A stretch of 64,000 nucleotides of DNA from Escherichia coli (lineage in GTDB: Bacteria; Pseudomonadota; Gammaproteobacteria; Enterobacterales; Enterobacteriaceae). The number at the start of each line of letters is the position of its first letter. The first letter of the stretch is position 1. The position numbers were made by a program, and so were the translations under genes. Location of the stretch: NCBI RefSeq assembly GCF_003790525.1, contig NZ_CP033635.1, one strand, 5' to 3'. This document shows, piece after piece, positions 8,206 to 43,320 of this stretch. The notes beneath the pieces were generated by a model. The model was not told the origin of the DNA. It searched no databases and worked only from the letters and a program-made list of their open reading frames with translations.

Positions 8206-8281
8206 TGGCTCCTCTGACTGGACTCGAACCAGTGACATACGGATTAACAGTCCGCCGTTCTACCGACTGAACTACAGAGGA
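8206..8281 (-). tRNA. asnW: tRNA-Asn (GTT anticodon)
   Basis: 76-nt reverse complement of the tRNA-Asn sequence also present at 10030 and 12439; ends in CCA. Confidence 0.95.
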
Positions 8282-32257: not shown

Positions 32258-33592
32258 TCAGAACATACTCACCACAAGAAATCCCAGAAGCACTGAGAAA
32301 GCAATAGCCAGTACACCCGGAATAAAGAAAGCATGGTTGAACACATACTTACCAATACGGGTCGTTCCTGTGTCATCCATTTGCACCGCCCCCAGAAGGG
32401 TTGGGTAAGTTGGTAACACAAATAAAGCAGACACAGCAGCAAAAGAAGCTACCAGCATGTAACTGTCATCCGGATTCGCTGCAGTAATACCCAATGCAGT
32501 CACAATAGCCGGAGTGATAGCTTTGGCAGTTGCAGCCTGTGAATACAGAAGCATCGCAGCCAGGAAAAATACCACAGCCAGAAGAGCTGGATACTGGGAT
32601 ACAGTAGTTCTGGCAAGCTCCTTAATTTCTCCTGAATGACCAGATACAAAAGTGTCCCCCAACCATGCCACACCCAGTACACAGATACAGGCAACCATGC
32701 CTGACTTGAACACAGAGGAGTCCGCAATCTTGTTTATATCTGCTTTACAGAAAAGGGTAATGAATCCGCCAACCAGTAGCATGAGACTCATAATAGCCGC
32801 ATCACGACTAACAACAACGTTATCAATCAGACCCAGCGTCGGGCTAATGGCCGAAGCGTAAAGGACCACCAGGATGACGCCAATAAGGAAAATTGCGACA
32901 GATCGTCTGGCATAAGGCTTGAGCTGTTTGTTAACACTCTTTACTGGCGCGCTTACGAGTCCTTTGGAAAGACGCTCCCGGTAAACCGGATCATTGTCTA
33001 ATTTCATGTCAGAAATCAGACTGATTATAAATGCGGTAAGCATGCAACCAACGAATGTGGTAAACAACCATATCCCAAGCAATACTGGATAACTCCACCC
33101 AAAGCCTTCCAGTACGCCAGACATATAGATAACGGCAGCCGATACAGGTGATGCTGTAATTGCAATTTGAGATGATACAACCGCAATTGAGAGCGGACAT
33201 GAGGGCTTAATGTTTTGTTCTTTGGAAACTTCGACAATTACAGGGATCATTGAAAATGCAGTATGTCCCGTACCGGCAAAGATTGTCAGCACATAAGTGA
33301 CAACCGGAGCCAGGTAATTAATATATTTTGGATTTTTACGAAGAATTCGTTCAGCGACCTGAACGAGATAGTCCAGTCCTCCCGCCAGTTGCATGGCCGA
33401 AATAGCAGAAATTACCGATGCAATAATTAGAATCACATCCCAGGGGATATTACCAGGCTTCATATCCAGACAAAGCCCCAGAATCAATACCCCAATGCCA
33501 CCGGCATAACCAATACCAATCCCGCCCATACGGACACCCAAAAAGATTGCCCCCAGCAGAACCACTATCTGAAGAACAGTGATAATATCCAT
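32258..33592 (-). CDS. DcuA-family anaerobic C4-dicarboxylate transporter paralog, downstream of the AspA-like gene
   Basis: 444 aa ORF; N-terminus closely parallels DcuA (…GNIPWDVILIIASVISAISAMQLAGGLDYLV…). Confidence 0.85.
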   Translation of the reverse strand: MDIITVLQIVVLLGAIFLGVRMGGIGIGYAGGIGVLILGLCLDMKPGNIPWDVILIIASVISAISAMQLAGGLDYLVQVAERILRKNPKYINYLAPVVTYVLTIFAGTGHTAFSMIPVIVEVSKEQNIKPSCPLSIAVVSSQIAITASPVSAAVIYMSGVLEGFGWSYPVLLGIWLFTTFVGCMLTAFIISLISDMKLDNDPVYRERLSKGLVSAPVKSVNKQLKPYARRSVAIFLIGVILVVLYASAISPTLGLIDNVVVSRDAAIMSLMLLVGGFITLFCKADINKIADSSVFKSGMVACICVLGVAWLGDTFVSGHSGEIKELARTTVSQYPALLAVVFFLAAMLLYSQAATAKAITPAIVTALGITAANPDDSYMLVASFAAVSALFVLPTYPTLLGAVQMDDTGTTRIGKYVFNHAFFIPGVLAIAFSVLLGFLVVSMF

Positions 33593-33747
33593 GATTCTCT
33601 CCCGAATTAGTGAGACACCTTTACCCCTGAGCTCCTCTCAACAAAGGCCTTATGGAATGTATTTTTACAAACATCCGGGCAGAGGACTGATACGTTTTCA
33701 TTCGCGCCATCCCCTGCCGGATCTCCCTTCTTACAGATTCTGAACAA

Positions 33748-35148
33748 TTATTGTTCGAACTTCGGAGCAATCAGATTATCCAGATTGAATGTCTTCTCCC
33801 ATTCTTCCTGTGTGAGTAGCTTACGTTCGACAACCACTATCTGATGGAGGGATTTGCCTGTATGGTATGCTTCGTGCGCCATTTCAGAACACACCTTATA
33901 TCCCAGATGTGGCTTCAGGAGAGTCACAATACCGCAGGAATGCATTACCATCTCTGCAGTTCGATCGGAATTAGCTGTAATGCCATCAATGCATTTAGTT
34001 CGGAGTGTGTTACAGGCATTCGTCATCACCTTGAGTGAGGTGAACAGCGCAAAGGTGATGACCGGCTCCATAACGTTAAGCTCAAGCTGACCAGCAGATG
34101 CCGCCAGCATCACTGTGGTGTCCAGCCCCTGAACCAGGAAGCAAGACTGGTTTGTTACTTCCGGGATAACGGGGTTAACCTTACCAGGCATAATGGAAGA
34201 ACCCGGTTGCAATTGAGGCAGGTTAATTTCAGCCAGGCCGCAACGGGGGCCTGAAGCAAGCAGTCGAATGTCATTACAAACCTTGGTAAGCTTCACAGAG
34301 AGGCTCTTCATGGCCGAACTGAGTGCAACATATGCACCACAGTCGCTTGTGGCAGCGATGAGATCTTCACTGTTCCTGAAATTAATGCCTGTGATCTGGG
34401 CCAGATATTTCACGGCTAAAGCGGGATAATCCGGGTGAGCGGTAACACAGGTACCAATCGCAGTAGCACCAAGGTTTACAACCCGCAGGTGTTCCTGTGC
34501 ATTACGGATGACCCGAATTTCATCATTAATTGTAAAACCCCAGCCATGGAACTCCTGGCCGAGAGTCATTGGCACTGCATCCTGCAGGTGAGTACGTCCC
34601 ATCTTGAGCACTGTGCTGAACTCGTCAGCCTTTTTGTAGAATGCTCCTACGAGGTGTTCAACAGCTTCAAGCAATACATTGCTTCGCAGCAGCAATGCCA
34701 GATGTAATGCTGTCGGATATGTATCATTGGTGGACTGACCAAAATTAGCATGGTCGTTTGGCGAAACGCGTTTGTAATCCCCTTTAACGCTACCAAGTTT
34801 TTCTGCAGCAAGATTACAAATCACTTCATTGCAGTTCATATTGGTTGACGTTCCGGCTCCCCCCTGAAGCCAGTCGGTCACAAACTGTTCCCGGTACTTA
34901 CCATCAATTAATTGGTCGCAAGCCCAGATTAAAGCATCCGCAACATCAGCAGGAATTGTACCTAACTCCTTATTAGCCATCGCAGCTGCTTTTTTCACAT
35001 AACCGAAGGCAATGATGAAGAAGGGCTCCTGACTCATTGGCATTTCAGTAATATGGAAATTATCCTCACCACGAAGTGTCTGAACACCATAATAGCAATC
35101 ATCCGGAACTTCACGCTCACCAAGGAAATCGCTTTCAATACGAGACAT
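33748..35148 (-). CDS. aspartate ammonia-lyase-family enzyme (AspA paralog), copy 1
   Basis: 466 aa ORF with fumarate-lyase signature GSSIMPGKVNPV; gene order lyase then Dcu transporter mirrors aspA-dcuA. Confidence 0.85.
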   Translation of the reverse strand: MSRIESDFLGEREVPDDCYYGVQTLRGEDNFHITEMPMSQEPFFIIAFGYVKKAAAMANKELGTIPADVADALIWACDQLIDGKYREQFVTDWLQGGAGTSTNMNCNEVICNLAAEKLGSVKGDYKRVSPNDHANFGQSTNDTYPTALHLALLLRSNVLLEAVEHLVGAFYKKADEFSTVLKMGRTHLQDAVPMTLGQEFHGWGFTINDEIRVIRNAQEHLRVVNLGATAIGTCVTAHPDYPALAVKYLAQITGINFRNSEDLIAATSDCGAYVALSSAMKSLSVKLTKVCNDIRLLASGPRCGLAEINLPQLQPGSSIMPGKVNPVIPEVTNQSCFLVQGLDTTVMLAASAGQLELNVMEPVITFALFTSLKVMTNACNTLRTKCIDGITANSDRTAEMVMHSCGIVTLLKPHLGYKVCSEMAHEAYHTGKSLHQIVVVERKLLTQEEWEKTFNLDNLIAPKFEQ

Positions 35149-36013
35149 AATTTTCTAACTCCATTTTTCGAAAACAATGTGACAATAACAAATTGTTTTC
35201 ATAAAACACTTATCCAACATTAAGAATGAATACTTATAATCACCAGATGACATAACCATTACCATCTAATGGAATATATTTAAACTAATAAGATAAACTT
35301 AAAACGTGATATCAAGCACATTTTTATAACGTTAAAATTAGTGGGTTATTTAGCAATCAAATATAACCAGTAAAAGCCCGAAATATGCAGATAACGCTGC
35401 ACTAATATGATTAAGATCAAAAAAAACAATTCCGCAATCAAACTTATTATTAATGCTGATTTTTTAAATCATGATTAAGTAGAACTATTTTATAATAGCA
35501 TCCCGGTTTGGTCACATCCTTCAGAAAAACAACCTGTTTACCACCATAGAAAATCTATATCTCTGCTAGGTTTTCCAGCGTTGTAGATATAGTCACTCAT
35601 GGTGATTCTTATTAAGATAAGAGTTTTTACACGGGAATGTTATTGCACTTCTAATTGATAAATCTTGGAATAGAGTAGAAAACGTAATGTTTCCACTCCA
35701 TCTTCCGCTTTAATGGTTTGTAATTTGAGTTAGATCATGGATTTTAACATCCATTATGATTAATTATTTTTAGATGATTTGATCACTAAATCGTCTTTCA
35801 GGGTGTAACGGCATTAATCATCACAAGCTAAAAAAACGCCATACTGTAATGGAGTCTGTATTTTATGTTCAATCATGCAAAGGCTCTTCATAATTATCAT
35901 TTCTCTCTTGGAAAAATGACAGCCTGAACATAGCATAAATTCACGTTCTTCAGAGTCAGAAGGTGTTAATAAACTGTCCCTAAAATCTGGAAAATGTTGA
36001 AGAAGGCATCTCA

Positions 36014-37270
36014 ATGGATATTGTCGAACGCTTTATCAATTATACAAAAATTAATACCACTACCTCACGAGAAAACGGCGCAAAAGGGATCATGCCTTCA
36101 TCTCCTGGTCAGATGAAACTTGCGAAATTGTTGGTGAGTGAACTTGAAGCATTGGGTATGGAGGATATTATTCTCAGAGAGAATGCTATCGTAACAGCAA
36201 CACTCCCTGCAAATACTGACGAAACAATCCCCGTCGTTTCCTTTTTTGGACATCTGGACACCAGTGCCGAACAGACAGCCGATACAAAAGCGCAACGATT
36301 ACCTTATAATGGGGGCGATCTCTGTCTGAACCCTGAACTGAATATTTATTTGCGTGAGAGTGAATTCCCGGAGCTCAAAAATTATATTGGCGATGACCTT
36401 ATAGTGACAGATGGTACCAGCCTTCTGGGGGCCGATGATAAAGCGGCGCTGGCGGCCATAATGAACGCACTTCAATTTCTGATTTCTCATCCTGAAATCA
36501 GGCATGGAGAAGTTAAAGTTGGGTTTGTGCCAGATGAAGAGCAGGGGTTACGGGGGGCCAAAGCCTTCGATGTTTCAGAGTTTGGCGCAGATTTTGGCTA
36601 CACTCTGGATTGCTGCGGTATTGGAGAATTTGTTTACGAAAACTGGAATGCGGGTGATGCAGAAATTATCTTTACCGGCCAGTCTGCACACCCTATGTCA
36701 GCGAAAGGCAAGCTTAAGAACTCTCTTTTGATGGCTCACAAATTCATTTCGATGTTGCCAGGAGGAGAAGCGCCTGAATATACAGAAGGACGCGAAGGCT
36801 ATTATTGGGTGAAACAGTTACAGGGAAACAGTGCCAGAACTGTACTAAAACTGGATATACGAGATTTCAGCGAGGAAGGATATCACGCCCGGAAGACATT
36901 TGTACGCCAGCTTGCAGAAAGTGCTTGTGCATTATGGGGAGAAGGAAGCGTGATCTGCCAACTGAGCGATCGGTACGCCAATGTCTTTAACAGTCTGCAG
37001 GGAGAGGGGCATTATCCCATCGACATTGCCCTGCGAGCTTACCAACGATGTGGTATTACTCCGACACCGGTGGCGATGCGTGGAGGATATGATGGCGCTG
37101 TTCTTTCACAAAAAGGATTACCCTGCCCGAACATTTTTACCGGCGCACATAATTTCCATTCTATCTATGAATATCTTCCAGTCCGTTCACTTCGGGCGGC
37201 AAGTGATGTGGTTATTGCCATCATTCAGGAGACATTCAATGGGTTCACCACAGGGAATCGTGAGTCATGA
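36014..37270 (+). CDS. peptidase T-like M20-family peptidase
   Basis: 418 aa ORF; HLDTS, GADDKAA and FVPDEE metal-ligand motifs. Confidence 0.75.
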   Translation: MDIVERFINYTKINTTTSRENGAKGIMPSSPGQMKLAKLLVSELEALGMEDIILRENAIVTATLPANTDETIPVVSFFGHLDTSAEQTADTKAQRLPYNGGDLCLNPELNIYLRESEFPELKNYIGDDLIVTDGTSLLGADDKAALAAIMNALQFLISHPEIRHGEVKVGFVPDEEQGLRGAKAFDVSEFGADFGYTLDCCGIGEFVYENWNAGDAEIIFTGQSAHPMSAKGKLKNSLLMAHKFISMLPGGEAPEYTEGREGYYWVKQLQGNSARTVLKLDIRDFSEEGYHARKTFVRQLAESACALWGEGSVICQLSDRYANVFNSLQGEGHYPIDIALRAYQRCGITPTPVAMRGGYDGAVLSQKGLPCPNIFTGAHNFHSIYEYLPVRSLRAASDVVIAIIQETFNGFTTGNRES

Positions 37271-38628
37271 TTAAAGTTGTTATCGCGCTTCTTGTTATCG
37301 TGATAGTTGCTCGCTTAATCCTGAAAGGATATCGTGCAGAACCCGTGCTTTTTATTGCCGGGCTTGCGCTGATGGTTTGTACCTGGTTTACCGGTTGGGG
37401 CACAGTGTTACCGAAGGGCGTGTCCGGTACAGGAATTAGTTTTCTTGATCCTTTCGAAGTCATGCGCAATTTATTCAGTACCCGTGCGGCTGATCTCGGT
37501 CTGATGATTATGACCCTGATGGGATTTGCGCATTACATGGACCATATCGGTGCGAATGAAGCGGTTGTCCGTGTGGTAACCCGGCCATTACGGACATTAC
37601 GTTCCCCCTATGTTCTGCTTTTTTTCTCTTATCTTTTCGCCAGTCTTCTTCAACTGGCTATCCCCTCAGCTACCGGACTTGCTGTTTTACTGATGGGAAC
37701 CATGTTTCCTATTATGCTCGGACTCGGGCTGTCAGCAGCGTCTGCCGCAGGGGTAATTGCCACCTCTCTTGGTGTGGCGTACACACCGACAGCCATTGAC
37801 GCCATACGAGGCTCTGAAGCGGTAAATATGGATGTGGTGGAGTATGTTGTCTATCATCAGGGGCCTGCTGCTCTGGCGACTGTTCTGATTGTCGGTATCA
37901 GCCACTTTTTCTGGCAGAAACACTGTGATCGTAAAGCTGGAACATTACCTCATGAAATTGGTACGACAACGGTCATAAAAGCAGGCAGTACGCCGGCTTA
38001 TTATGCTCTGCTACCTATGCTACCGATCCTGATGGCCGTTGGCTCATCGGAGATTTTTGTCACCGGAATTAATCTCAATATCATTACGATTGTTCTTATC
38101 TCAATGGCAATTTGCATGCTGATCGAATGGGTCCGTAAATGTGATCTGAAAGCTGTATGTGACGGGTTTACCCATTTCCTGAAAGGAATGGGGACAGCAT
38201 TTACCGGCGTGGTGGGCTTACTGGTGGCCGCAGGTGTGTTTGCTCATGGGATTAAAAGCATTGGCGCGATAGATCAATTAATTTTGATGGCAGAGCACGT
38301 TGGGTTACCCCCTTTTGCGATGGGCATCGTTTTTGCTCTGGTTACACTGGCTGCAGCTGTCATTATGGGATCGGGCAATGCGCCATTTCTGGCTTTTGTT
38401 GAACTGATACCACAAATCGCTGCCAGCATGGGCGTGAATGCCATATCGATGATCCTGCCTATGCAGCAGGCTTCCCATATGGGGCGTGCGATGTCTCCCG
38501 TATCTGGCGTGGTTATAGCGGTTTCCAGTGGAGCAAATATAACTCCCTTCGAAGTGGTAAAACGCACTGCTTTACCCCTGATAGTTGGTTTTGTTTTTCA
38601 CTCTGCGATTATCGGTATTTTTTATTAA
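37267..38628 (+). CDS. DcuC-family C4-dicarboxylate transporter paralog
   Basis: 453 aa multi-[19 protein letters not shown] and [10 protein letters not shown]…SPFEVVKRT motifs; start overlaps the peptidase stop. Confidence 0.8.
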
Positions 38629-38818
38629 CTTGTTTTAGATTGTCATCCTCCACGCCCAGAAGGATGTGGATTCCTGCTAATCAGGCTATTGCCGGAATCA
38701 TTTCGGTGGGCTCCTGCTTAAACAAAAGGCCTGACTGCACCATCTCTTTACAGGCAAGTACGGCGTGCCCTGCAGCTAAAATATTACGGGTGCCGTTTAC
38801 ATCGGCGCTCGCTGCATA

Positions 38819-39900
38819 TGTGCGCCGGGCATGGCGCGTAGCGCCGTGACTGGCGCTGTTCTTCAACTGTGGTGGCTGAAGAACGACTAAGAGGTGAAAG
38901 TCCTCCACACACCCGGTGAGGGGAAGTGTTAGCGGAAGGCAAGGGTGTTCATCGCGAGGTGAAATCTGAAGGAAGCCGGATGCAAAATGCTGGCCTGACG
39001 AACAGGAAGCGGTTAAGGCGGCGCAGCAGGGTAAGGTGGCACAAATCACCAAAGCCCGATACTCACACGGAACGCTGTGACGTAAAGCCGACAGGCATAA
39101 GCAGGAAAGTCGCGTGAATTACCCCGGGAGATCTGTCGCCCTGCCAGTGTGCTACCGGTGCCGTGAGGCGCCGGGATGGGGCGGCAGAAGTCAGCCGACG
39201 CCGTAGTAGTGCTGCAAAACCGGCAGCATGAAGGGCCGAACATGATTAACTGTGATTAGGACATCCGAACCCGATGATGATTAATGAAGCACACGCGCAG
39301 GCAACTGCGGCCAGCGGCAGAGGAGACGGACAGTATCCGTCAGGGCTGCATGATGGCGCTGAAATCAGCACGGCGGCGGGTGGGCAAACGAAAGCGGAAG
39401 TGCCGCTGACGATGGAAGCGGTGATAACGAGAGAAAACCTGATGCTGGCTTATCAGCGCGTGGTGGAAAACAAAGGTGTGTCGGAGTTGAAACCGTGGCT
39501 GAAGAAGAACTGGCGCAGCGTATGGCAGGTATTGATTGACGGAAACTACCAGCCGCGGGCAATACGCCGGATGGATATCCCGAAGCCGGATGGCGGCGTG
39601 AGAACCTTAGGCATCCCGACGGTGGTGGACAGGCTTATCCAGCAGGCGATAGCGCAGCAGTTAAGCGCCATCGTGGACACAGCTTCTGCCGCTACGCAGA
39701 CGACTGCAACATCTACGTAAGCAGCCGGAAAGCGGGCGACCATCTGCTGAAGGACATCAGGGCGTTCGTGGAGAGCAAACTGAAACAGAAGGTGAATGAG
39801 AAGAAGAGCGCGGTGGCGCGCCCGTGGGAGCGGAAGTTGTGGGCTGACAGTGACGGACCGTGCTGCTTCACCAAACGCCTTGGACGGCAGGCGGAACTTG
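38819..39900 (+). mobile_element. truncated group II intron: GUGCG 5' end, structured GC-rich domain I region and a degraded intron-encoded reverse transcriptase
   Basis: GTGCGCCGGGCATGGCGCG… at 38819; ORF 39274..39720 has RT domain 0-2 residues (IPKPDGGVRTLGIPTVVDRLIQQAIAQ); a YADD motif appears out of frame downstream. Confidence 0.6.
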
Positions 39901-40243
39901 GATCGTTACGTACTTGAAAAGTGGATCAACAAGAGGGTTCAACGAGACTGGGGAGTTATATTTCTTTCTCAAGGTCCGGCATTTATCTCTTCCACATGAA
40001 ATCTCGATATAAAGTCAGACACGGATGTCCTACTGAAAGCGGGGGGAAGTATGGTGATAGAGGTCAGCGGGAACCTATCCATAAAAGTCACTCATTACAC
40101 TAAAAAATATGTGCATATTATTTGCGTGCAATTAAATTTTGCAAAATCGAATTAGCATAATTTTTTTTGATAGAAGTCAAATAAACATAATGGAAAAAGT
40201 TTAAATATTTATATTGTATAAACTTCAGACAAAAGGAGGAGTT

Positions 40244-41275
40244 ATGAATAAAATAAAAGGTATAACAGTAATGGCAGCCTTCGCATTGTGTATAGGATAT
40301 GCTCACGCTGAATCTCAAACGCCAATACGCCTTGTAATTCATGGTGGAGCTGGCACCATAACAAAAGATACTATTACACCTGAACAAGAAAAACAATACA
40401 GAGAAAAGTTAACAGATGCACTAAATGCTGGGTATGCTGTGCTTAATAGTGGAGGAAGTAGCCTTGATGCTGTTCAGCGTGCAATTAATGTTATGGAGGA
40501 CTCTCCCCTCTTCAATGCTGGAAAAGGCGCTGTCTTTACTCATGATGGCAAAAACGAACTTGATGCTGCAATTATGGATGGAAAAACCAAAATGGCCGGA
40601 GCCGTTGCAGGAGTGACGACCATAAAAAACCCTATAAACGCTGCTTATGCAGTTATGACTAAAAGCCCTCATGTATTAATGATCTCTAATGGTGCGGAAC
40701 TATTTGCAAAAGAGCAAGGCTTAGTTATGGTTGAGCCAGCATATTTCAAAACTGATTTCCGTTGGCAACAGCTACAGAACGCTTTAAAAGACGAAAAAAT
40801 AACCCTTGATCATAATGGTAAATCAGCATCTCTTTTACTCCCCCCAAAGAACTACGACTATAAATATGGAACTGTTGGAGCAGTCGCGTTGGACAAAGAT
40901 GGTAATCTGGCAGCTGGAACATCAACAGGAGGTATGACAAATAAACGTTACGGACGCGTAGGTGACTCGCCAATAATTGGAGCAGGAACCTATGCCGATA
41001 ATAATACCGTTGCTGTTTCTGCTACAGGTACTGGAGAAATGTTTATTAGAACTTCAACTGCATACAATATTGCTGCTCAGGTGAAATATAAAAATACACC
41101 ATTGAAAGAAGCAGCTCAAAATGCGCTTGATGAAGTTAAAAACATTAATGGTAGTGGTGGTGTCATTGTTCTAGATAAGAATGGTAATTATACTATGAGT
41201 TTCAATACAGAAGGGATGTATCGTGGAACTATCGGCAACGATGGTAAAGCTATCGTATCAATTTATGAACAATAG
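40244..41275 (+). CDS. secreted plant-type asparaginase / isoaspartyl peptidase (Ntn hydrolase)
   Basis: ORF 40214..41275; signal peptide after MNKIKG; GGAGT…TSTGGM…GDSPIIGAG motifs; AGGAGG before the ATG at 40244. Confidence 0.8.
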   Translation: MNKIKGITVMAAFALCIGYAHAESQTPIRLVIHGGAGTITKDTITPEQEKQYREKLTDALNAGYAVLNSGGSSLDAVQRAINVMEDSPLFNAGKGAVFTHDGKNELDAAIMDGKTKMAGAVAGVTTIKNPINAAYAVMTKSPHVLMISNGAELFAKEQGLVMVEPAYFKTDFRWQQLQNALKDEKITLDHNGKSASLLLPPKNYDYKYGTVGAVALDKDGNLAAGTSTGGMTNKRYGRVGDSPIIGAGTYADNNTVAVSATGTGEMFIRTSTAYNIAAQVKYKNTPLKEAAQNALDEVKNINGSGGVIVLDKNGNYTMSFNTEGMYRGTIGNDGKAIVSIYEQ

Positions 41276-41612
41276 ATAAAATATTTTATACATCGTCTTG
41301 CCCTTAAGGCCCATTTTAAAAGCGGGCCTTTATTTAATAAATATTCTTAACGCCTCCTTATTTCACAGCTAAAAGAAGAGTAATTCTTAGACTCATTAAC
41401 CGTCTCTCTACCGAGACGCTTACCCATATCCAGCCCGTACCCTGCAGAAATACCGCGATGTATAGCGTTTCTGTGTCATGGTGAAAAGTACAGGAGGAAA
41501 TTATAAATTCTGGGAATATCCCTGGTTATAACATTTTGTAATACATTAAGTGATATCATTATTTATGATGTAAAAAGGGGCCTGCAATAGCCCCTGAAAA
41601 ATCAGAAAACCT

Positions 41613-41891
41613 TCATTTTATACCTGCAGCGCTCATTGACTGCCGCAGTGCATCCAGTCCTTGCTTACAGGCCATATCCTGACTGGCGTCAGGTAAAGCT
41701 GCAATTTGTTTTCGGGATTGTTCATATTGCTGTTTCAGCGTATTAACCTGTGCTTCTGGTGTTCCCATTTCCTTCATCTTTGCTACAAAATTATCGATTT
41801 CTTTATAATACTCTTCACATGCCGGAGTCAGTGCTGCACTGGCTGACATACTGAATAATACTGTAGTAAGTAAGACTGTAATTGTTTTCAT
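41613..41891 (-). CDS. small secreted protein of unknown function
   Basis: ORF 41613..41942; start taken at MKTITVLL; signal peptide and two cysteines. Confidence 0.45.
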   Translation of the reverse strand: MKTITVLLTTVLFSMSASAALTPACEEYYKEIDNFVAKMKEMGTPEAQVNTLKQQYEQSRKQIAALPDASQDMACKQGLDALRQSMSAAGIK

Positions 41892-42249: not shown

Positions 42250-43320
42250 TTCTGGACCAGAAAGGAGCCTGTACATAGATTTGTGTAATTGCCTGATTTT
42301 GATATGTTCAATTCACCTTCAAATGAAGGTGAATTTATGGCCGACAAACAATTGCAGGCTCTGGCTAACGAACTGGCCAAAAATCTCAAAACTCCTGAAG
42401 ATCTCAGTCAGTTCGATCGCCTGCTCAAGAAAATCAAAGTTGAGGCTGCTCTCAACGCTGAACTGACTCACCATCTGGGACATGAAAAAAATCAACCCAA
42501 ATCGGGAACCAACTCCCGTAATGGCTATTCCACGAAAACCGTCCCACTACCGACGGGCCGATGGAATTACGTACTCCACGTGATCGTGATGGTTCCTTCG
42601 AACCACAACTGGTGAAGAAAAATAAGACCTGCATTATCGGCATGAACAACCAGATCCTGGCGCTGTATGCCAGAGGGATGACTACTCGCGAAATTACCTC
42701 AGTCTTCAAAGAAATGTACGATGCAGACGTTTCTCCGGCGCTGATATCGAAAATCACCGATGCCGTAATCGACCAGGTTGTAGAATGGCAAAACCGTCCT
42801 CTGGATGCGATTTATCCCATTGTTTATCTTGACTGTATTGTCCTGAAAGTACGGCAGGACAGCCGGGTTATCAGCAAAGCGGTGTTCCTGGCTCTGGGTA
42901 TTAACCTTGATGGTCAGAAAGAGCTGCCAGGTATGTGGCTGGCCGAAAATGAAGGTGCAAAGTTCTGGCTGAATGTACTGACGGAACTGAAAAATCGCGG
43001 CCTGAACGATATCCTTATCGCCTGCGTGGACGGCCTGAAAGGCTTCCCGGAAGCGATTAATGCCGTCTACCCGGAGACGCAGCTCCTGTTGTGCATAGTA
43101 CATATGGTACGCAACAGCCTGCGGTTAGGGCGTGGAAAGACTATAAAGCGGTAACCCGTGACCTGAAACAGGTTTACCACACAGCCACGGAAGAAGGCGC
43201 GTTGCAGGCGCTGGATGCGTTCGGGAAGGAATGGGATGCACGGTACCCGCAGATAAGTCGCAGCTGGCAGGCAAACTGGCCGAATGTTGCCACCTTCTTC
43301 GTGTACCCGGAGGCGAGCCG
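42250..43320 (+). mobile_element. IS256-family insertion-sequence remnant; transposase frameshifted and C-terminally truncated
   Basis: ORFs 42289..42615, 42561..43154 and the first part of 43091..44095 together give a mutator-type transposase (…IYPIVYLDCIVLKVRQD…WLNVLTELKNRG…). Confidence 0.75.

Follow-up and report, generated by a model that had tools for sequence, protein, structure and literature searches.

Two periplasmic Ntn hydrolases that process themselves, the glycosylasparaginase of Flavobacterium and the gamma-glutamyltranspeptidase (GGT) of Escherichia coli, cleave non-alpha amide bonds and so set an amino acid free. E. coli also has a cytoplasmic enzyme, the isoaspartyl peptidase IaaA (EcAIII), whose gene belongs to the core genome: it was present in 5425 of 5426 complete E. 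coli genomes and lies upstream of gsiA (gsiABCD) in K-12. In class 2 enzymes the dominant activity is on isoaspartyl dipeptides, and the Km for asparagine is in the millimolar range (PMC8256714). The residues that act as nucleophile, form the oxyanion hole and anchor the alpha-carboxylate and alpha-amino group of the aspartyl moiety are described in the same IUCrJ review (PMC8256714). Its class 2 section does not mention exported bacterial members, and in the literature we found neither a characterisation of an IaaA-type enzyme that is periplasmic or exported nor a description of the island treated here.

The DNA analysed, referred to as the window, is a stretch of 64,000 nucleotides from E. 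coli (assembly GCF_003790525.1, contig NZ_CP033635.1). It contains an intact open reading frame of 343 codons on the plus strand, from the ATG at 40244 to the TAG at 41273-41275. The RefSeq product name of the E. coli protein is 'isoaspartyl peptidase/L-asparaginase family protein', and a cluster search returned the identical 343-residue protein (cluster P0001). We put the probability at about 75% that this gene, gained by horizontal transfer, codes for a paralog (xenolog) of the class 2 Ntn hydrolases which is predicted to be exported by the Sec route and to act as a periplasmic beta-aspartyl peptidase that would complement AnsB. The coordinates of the features are collected in Table 1.

Table 1. 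Positions in the window of the asparaginase-family gene, its predicted protein segments and the neighbouring features discussed in the text.
Feature	Position	Strand	Basis
Island ansB, periplasmic type II asparaginase, signal peptide MNFYKRTALAALVMGFSGAALA	30724..31770	-	703 bits, AnsB equivalog model
FNR-box-like palindrome TTGATAGAAGTCAA, 64 nt upstream of the ATG	40167..40180	+	1 mismatch; lead only
Shine-Dalgarno sequence AAGGAGG, 4 nt 5' of the ATG	40233..40239	+	direct sequence reading
CDS, IaaA-like isoaspartyl peptidase/L-asparaginase precursor, predicted to be exported (343 aa + stop)	40244..41275	+	ORF; Pfam; structure matches; export predicted
Predicted Sec signal peptide, residues 1-22 (MNKIKGITVMAAFALCIGYAHA); signal peptidase I cleavage predicted after AHA	40244..40309	+	hydropathy, layout
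Predicted alpha subunit, Glu23-Gly209, with HGGAG (33-37) and oxyanion/Na-loop Asn91	40310..40870	+	EcAIII alignment; invariant columns
Flexible linker, residues 191-207	40814..40864	+	pLDDT <50
Predicted beta subunit, Thr210-Gln343; Thr210 as N-terminal nucleophile	40871..41272	+	EcAIII alignment; residue roles from PMC8256714
Beta-subunit substrate-binding/catalytic residues Thr228, Arg238, Asp241, Thr261, Gly262, Gly264, Glu265	within 40871..41272	+	
Hairpin AAGGCCC...GGGCCUU followed by a U-rich tail; possible intrinsic terminator	41306..41336	+	-11.4 kcal/mol; z = -1.1, weak and by itself not significant
DUF5339 small secreted-protein gene, travels with the asparaginase-family gene on chromosomes and plasmids	41613..41891	-	

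The protein matched the Pfam profile PF01112 (Asparaginase_2) over its full length (E = 3.6e-118; residues 29-336 align with positions 2-304 of the 309-position model), which places it among the class 2 (type III, plant-type) Ntn hydrolases, as the original prediction of an Ntn-hydrolase asparaginase/isoaspartyl peptidase had it. Among proteins of solved structure the best relative was the EcAIII precursor (2zak; E = 2.5e-89, 303 bits, full length), followed by the plant, human and guinea-pig type III asparaginases, with glycosylasparaginases and taspase far lower. An AlphaFold model computed with 37 homologs as input had a mean pLDDT of 88.6 and could be superimposed on 2zak with a target-normalised TM score of 0.97 and an rmsd of 1.1 Å; the predicted structure thus has the alpha-beta-beta-alpha fold of the Ntn hydrolases. 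Definition was poor only for residues 1-20 (pLDDT about 58-60) and for the linker, residues 191-207 (pLDDT <50); a signal peptide and a flexible linker in front of an autoprocessing site would be expected to behave in this way.

Alignment with K-12 IaaA (52% identity over 299 residues) allowed us to assign the residues of the active site. The scissile bond of EcAIII, Gly178-Thr179, corresponds to Gly209-Thr210, which is preceded by the flexible linker and whose threonine is invariant. The threonine triad is present as Thr210, Thr228 and Thr261; Arg238, Asp241 and Asn91 are the equivalents of Arg207, Asp210 and Asn67 in EcAIII, and Gly262, Gly264, Glu265 and the HGGAG loop (33-37) are likewise kept. 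All of these catalytic and substrate-binding residues were invariant in the 37-sequence alignment, which reaches down to 45% identity. The autoproteolytic threonine and the substrate pocket, named at the outset as the points to be checked, are therefore those of IaaA.

In front of this fold lies an N-terminal segment that IaaA does not have. The first conserved strand (IRLVIHGGAG) begins at residue 28, whereas in K-12 IaaA it begins at about residue 4-6 with no N-terminal segment before it, in line with the statement in the original prediction that the cytoplasmic enzyme lacks a signal peptide. In a rule-based test, the N-terminus (MNKIKGITVMAAFALCIGYAHA, followed by ESQ) showed the tripartite layout of a Sec/signal peptidase I substrate, composed of an n-region MNKIK with a net charge of +2, a hydrophobic core of 12 residues (GITVMAAFALCI) and a c-region GYAHA with A-H-A at positions -3 to -1 before the glutamate. 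The best 9-residue Kyte-Doolittle window scored 2.79, against 1.67 in IaaA, where it lies inside the fold. In the AlphaFold model residues 5-16 form a detached helix. A signal-like extension of at least 20 residues, with the same architecture and a divergent sequence, was found in 104 of 120 homologs at ≥64% identity, where the cleavage site also occurs as VFA/N, AIA/A, TLA/S or AWG/D; the homologs that lack the extension are mostly truncated, partial or N-terminally shortened sequences.

The cysteine content points in the same direction. The mature protein has no cysteine, compared with five in IaaA, and the core is free of cysteine in 111 of 115 close homologs. Among representatives of clusters at 50% identity, the median number of cysteines was 2 for those with a signal-like N-terminus and 4 for those with no extension (Mann-Whitney p = 5.7e-6). 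Proteins whose folding takes place in the oxidising periplasm are expected to show such a depletion. Other export routes were considered and rejected: the only cysteine of the precursor (C16) is preceded by F-A-L, and leucine at -1 is disallowed, so that there is no lipobox and a lipoprotein can be discarded; the n-region contains no RR, and hence no twin-arginine motif for Tat export. From this rule-based and comparative evidence we infer that the protein is exported by Sec and cleaved after Ala22. The clear signal peptide of the original prediction is thus upheld at the same level of evidence.

The gene could have been the ordinary iaaA ortholog, a reading which we reject. Its score against the IaaA beta-aspartyl-peptidase equivalog model (NCBIfam NF007589) was 346.4 bits, against a cut-off of 567, which leaves it outside the IaaA group; it is located in an accessory island and has a 22-residue extension; core iaaA is nearly universal; and blastn with 'distant' settings detected no similarity at the DNA level. 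The gene was found in 225 of the 5426 complete E. coli genomes (about 4%) at ≥99% identity, and in five plasmid copies, and the carrier genomes hold both core iaaA and the exported-type gene. Codon composition differs as well: GC3 is 0.26, equal to that of the Proteus ortholog, and 0.57 in iaaA. The low value suggests acquisition from a low-GC donor. The distinction from IaaA that had been predicted therefore stands.

The nearest relatives were found in Citrobacter braakii (85% identity), Proteus (77-79%), Aeromonas and Plesiomonas (76%), Providencia (75%) and Photobacterium (74%), where it is likewise named 'isoaspartyl peptidase/L-asparaginase family protein', except that one Proteus ortholog already bears the name 'exported L-asparaginase'. 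Like the window protein, the orthologs of Proteus, Providencia, C. braakii, Aeromonas and Plesiomonas are 341-345 residues long, have the signal-peptide architecture and the autoprocessing motif YDYKYG/T and contain no cysteines; a search of the literature found no experimental characterisation of them. In Proteus the gene is chromosomal, core and genus-wide, whereas the E. coli copy is accessory, mobile and clonal. We surveyed the family more widely through the closest 150 cluster representatives out of 1.84 billion proteins, whose N-termini were sorted by a heuristic. Signal-like N-termini were found in 54 of them, no extension in 45, long N-terminal domains in 20 and a short non-hydrophobic extension in 6, while 25 without an HGGAG-type anchor motif were left unplaced. 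With about a third of the representatives having signal-like N-termini, exported members appear to be common in the family. Judged from sequence, the gene is a further example of a known exported type. The exported paralog that had been proposed is accordingly real, as far as prediction goes, but less unusual than the proposal implied.

The gene sits in a mosaic island adjoining the asn-tRNA cluster and cobUST, at a site where a decayed colibactin island is recognisable by what is left of clbP and clbQ. The island holds a second ansB, an aspartase gene (aspA), pepT, dcuC, an ArgH-type lyase, several Dcu-type C4-dicarboxylate carriers, a GntR-type regulator and an orphan dcuR. Its ansB lies 8.5 kb from the asparaginase-family gene, in agreement with the predicted location of the two genes in the same island. 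Full-length copies of the ansB-dcu-aspA segment were counted in 222 genomes and those of the asparaginase-family gene in 223, and the same gene order recurs on conjugative IncF/IncI plasmids. The genes of the island AnsB and of the putatively exported enzyme thus travel together as part of one mobile block. In a simple positional comparison of the window with SMS-3-5 we counted 7006 mismatches over 41.4 kb; as the annotated genes are displaced by 1 nt towards the end of the block, these mismatches probably reflect a small indel and not divergence.

Within the block, the asparaginase-family and DUF5339 genes form a separate low-GC segment between remains of TnpB, a group II intron, IS256 and IS4. 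The G+C content of the asparaginase-family gene is 38-40%, against 41-48% for the ansB/aspA module, and it is the TnpB and group II intron debris that separates the gene from this module. The Proteus and Citrobacter orthologs showed no conserved neighbourhood; they are monocistronic and have unrelated neighbours. A functional tie to the island is for this reason drawn from proximity and not from synteny, and the link between the gene and the metabolism of the island may be only physical.

The gene of the window is also monocistronic. Scans for sigma-70 promoters and for terminators gave nothing beyond what shuffled sequence gave, and promoter-like hexamers were no more frequent than in such sequence. 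The FNR-like box raised the question of FNR-dependent regulation as in ansB, which we set aside as a weak lead, since 4.7 one-mismatch FNR-like sites are expected per 64 kb and no conserved counterpart was seen upstream of the Proteus or Citrobacter orthologs.

The function that we propose would involve four steps. The precursor would be exported by Sec and cut by signal peptidase I after Ala22, as its sequence suggests. In the periplasm the protein would adopt the Ntn fold and cleave itself between Gly209 and Thr210, freeing Thr210 as the nucleophile; this step is suggested by the conserved residues and has precedents in the Flavobacterium glycosylasparaginase and GGT. By homology, the mature (alpha-beta)2 enzyme would hydrolyse a beta-carboxyl linkage in substrates whose L-aspartyl moiety has its alpha-amino and alpha-carboxyl groups free. 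Its main substrates would be isoaspartyl (beta-aspartyl) dipeptides and tripeptides, and L-asparagine would be bound far less tightly; the products would be L-aspartate and an amino acid or ammonia. Finally, as the genomic context suggests, Dcu-type carriers could import the aspartate, from which the aspartase of the block would form ammonia and fumarate for anaerobic respiration. The enzyme would in this way complement the high-affinity periplasmic AnsB, which is itself unable to use beta-aspartyl peptides. We assign the main role to beta-aspartyl peptides, with asparagine hydrolysis as a side activity, because the affinity of class 2 enzymes for asparagine is only millimolar and the block already encodes the high-affinity AnsB; the substrate preference is extrapolated from enzymes of 35-52% identity. 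Of the second route to periplasmic aspartate that had been suggested, the distinctness of the route is retained as probable, with beta-aspartyl peptides as a likelier source than asparagine and a role complementary to that of AnsB.

The relatives of the protein provide a hint as to substrates. The nearest clusters at 50% identity include fusions of a signal peptide, a Peptidase_S51 domain (cyanophycinase/aspartyl dipeptidase family) and an Asparaginase_2 domain, which may tie exported relatives to the breakdown of peptides rather than of asparagine. Cyanophycin-derived beta-Asp dipeptides are cross-fed in microbial consortia, gut flora included (PMC10206079). Taken together, the secreted Peptidase_S51-fused relatives and this published cross-feeding make it conceivable that the enzyme scavenges extracellular beta-aspartyl dipeptides and, with the Dcu carriers, the aspartase and the ArgH-like lyase, constitutes a mobile module leading from peptides to fumarate respiration that would confer an advantage in colonisation. 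We regard this extension as unlikely. No cyanophycinase or Peptidase_S51 gene was found near the gene of the window. Conceivable sources of substrate are beta-Asp-Arg and beta-Asp-Lys from cyanophycinase-producing gut neighbours and isoaspartyl peptides from aged dietary or host protein.

An enzyme that serves mainly as a second periplasmic L-asparaginase, converting asparagine to aspartate and ammonia in parallel with AnsB, would fit the genuine asparaginase activity of the family (PMC8256714) and the proximity of the gene to ansB and aspA, within an island given over to the use of asparagine and aspartate. The millimolar Km of characterised class 2 enzymes speaks against it, as does the AnsB already encoded in the block, next to which any additional capacity would be marginal; nor does the pocket differ from that of EcAIII in any way that hints at a higher affinity for asparagine. 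We consider such a role unlikely.

Whether the gene is expressed and functional at all may be asked in view of its flanks, a pseudogenised TnpB, a group II intron maturase and remnants of IS256 and IS4, which could make it a passenger of a decaying mosaic island. The E. coli copies are near-identical (≥99%), so that selection within E. coli cannot be assessed from them. However, the reading frame is intact with all catalytic residues in at least 223 genomes and five plasmids, the Shine-Dalgarno site is strong, and comparison with the Proteus ortholog (dN = 0.146, dS saturated) indicates strong purifying selection on the family. A functionless passenger is therefore distinctly improbable.

The hydrophobic N-terminus could also be something other than a cleaved signal, either a membrane anchor or, with a start at 40271, part of a cytoplasmic protein. 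It is this start, at Met10, that RefSeq/PGAP annotates, giving a product of 334 residues in which the charged n-region is lost. We retained the ATG at 40244 because the Shine-Dalgarno site serves this codon and because the N-terminus MN(K/N)IK, shared by the Proteus orthologs, is kept; a TTG at 40214 was rejected, as it has no Shine-Dalgarno site. Even from Met10 a hydrophobic segment would precede the fold, nearly all relatives have an AXA-type site behind the h-region, and the depletion of cysteines fits an oxidising compartment. An uncleaved or cytoplasmic protein is thus very unlikely. Hardly credible, finally, is a periplasmic glycosylasparaginase like that of Flavobacterium, which would release aspartate from the GlcNAc-Asn of host or dietary N-glycoproteins: the Pfam family and fold are shared and glycosylasparaginase chains occur among the matches, but these reach only about 134 bits over residues 63-326, compared with 303 bits over the full length for EcAIII, the fold ranking descends from EcAIII through the plant and human type III enzymes to glycosylasparaginase and so leaves the protein outside that group, and the HGGAG loop of the asparaginase/isoaspartyl branch is kept in an N-terminal segment that does not align with glycosylasparaginase.

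We therefore keep to the periplasmic beta-aspartyl peptidase as the preferred reading. Should export and activity be confirmed, E. coli carriers of the gene would be able to release aspartate in the periplasm from beta-linked aspartyl peptides. Such peptides are cleaved neither by AnsB nor by ordinary peptidases, and the aspartate would feed the anaerobic respiration that proceeds from aspartate to fumarate, a process which matters in the gut. Many of the carrier lineages come from poultry and from human extraintestinal sources. The locus also exemplifies a systematic annotation problem, in that the RefSeq start truncates the signal peptide, which would then escape predictions of localisation based on the deposited protein. 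Enzymologists would find in the clade a class 2 asparaginase scaffold that is naturally free of cysteine and predicted to be exported. An exported gene of the asparaginase family does not overturn current understanding.

Compared with known systems, the protein is closest to IaaA/EcAIII (ybiK; PDB 2zak, 2zal and 1k2x), with which it has in common the Pfam family, the fold (TM 0.97), 52% identity, the Gly-Thr processing site, the threonine triad, the Arg/Asp/Gly/Gly/Glu set and the HGGAG loop. EcAIII, however, has no signal peptide, five cysteines and a core gene next to gsiABCD, whereas the window protein has a predicted signal peptide of 22 residues, a linker longer by 7 residues, no cysteine, low-GC codons and a place in an accessory island. 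AnsB (EcAII) resembles the proposed enzyme in being exported, in giving periplasmic aspartate and in its link to anaerobic fumarate respiration (PMC8256714), but it has an unrelated fold (class 1 tetramer), a micromolar Km for asparagine, no beta-aspartyl peptidase activity and no autoprocessing. The Flavobacterium glycosylasparaginase acts on another substrate, is much less similar and has a sugar-binding N-terminal segment that is not shared; GGT likewise has another substrate and belongs to a different Pfam family. The Asparaginase_2 domains of the Peptidase_S51 fusions (P0121, P0126, P0131, P0154 and P0208) are 54-59% identical to the window protein and several of these fusions have signal-like N-termini, while the window protein itself has no S51 domain.

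Between 23421 and 38628 of the window lies a coherent accessory module for asparagine, aspartate and C4-dicarboxylates, the members of which are listed in the table together with the mobile-element debris around the asparaginase gene and the genes at the right end of the island. The pairing of C4-dicarboxylate carriers with an argininosuccinate-lyase homolog in this module is unusual.

Features of the island by position in the window
Feature	Position	Strand	Remark
ArgH-type lyase	within 23421-38628		615 bits on TIGR00838
Two divergent Dcu-type carriers	within 23421-38628		
GntR/FadR regulator	within 23421-38628		
dcuR	within 23421-38628		orphan, without dcuS
Second ansB and another dcu carrier	within 23421-38628		
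Aspartase, pepT, dcuC	within 23421-38628		
TnpB (InsQ-family) fragment	within 38681-39720		directly upstream of asparaginase gene
Group II intron maturase ORF, truncated	39274-39720		directly upstream of asparaginase gene
DUF5339 gene	41613-41891	-	small protein
IS256 and IS4 transposase genes, frameshifted	about 42337-44749		downstream of asparaginase gene
Further aspartate/glutamate racemase-family gene	60536-62612 and beyond		right end; database locus L002, 21144-23831
Another anaerobic C4-dicarboxylate carrier	60536-62612 and beyond		right end; L002, 21144-23831
Third aspartate ammonia-lyase gene	60536-62612 and beyond		right end; L002, 21144-23831

The whole asparaginase block is also present on five E. 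coli plasmids (NZ_AP022088.1, locus L009, and four others), all large conjugative IncF/IncI elements, in the order dcuR-ansB-dcu-aspA-pepT-dcuC-asparaginase-DUF5339-nucleoside hydrolase-dgo. Strain WP4-S18-ESBL-07 carries copies on both chromosome and plasmid. Chromosomal and plasmid-borne copies of the asparaginase gene alike are accompanied by the DUF5339 gene, which occurs by itself on one Salmonella plasmid (84% identity). The DUF5339 product has a signal-like N-terminus of its own (MKTITVLLTTVLFSMSASA) and two cysteines.

At about 21990-22960, adjoined by ibrA/ibrB-like genes, two colibactin genes, clbQ (thioesterase) and clbP, survive as pseudogene fragments. They indicate that a pks island has decayed at the asn-tRNA hot spot, where tRNA-Asn genes are located at 8206, 10030 and 12439. 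In Proteus (loci L005/L006, 9376-11910) a phage-type integrase gene comes next after the asparaginase ortholog, with amn (AMP nucleosidase) beyond it; in E. coli, amn likewise lies a few kb from the island. This shared proximity may be a coincidence or may reflect an old shared insertion region.

The RefSeq/PGAP annotation of the asparaginase gene (WP_001439114.1, 334 aa) starts at Met10, at 40271 as opposed to 40244, and its product lacks the signal peptide's charged n-region. With this annotated start, automated predictions of localisation probably miss the export signal.

Finally, in five database relatives of the asparaginase (P0121, P0126, P0131, P0154 and P0208) a Peptidase_S51 domain is naturally fused to an Asparaginase_2 domain, and several of these proteins have signal-like N-terminal segments. 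Such fusions, of which one cyanophycin paper examined makes no mention, look like secreted enzymes combining cyanophycinase and isoaspartyl dipeptidase in a single polypeptide.
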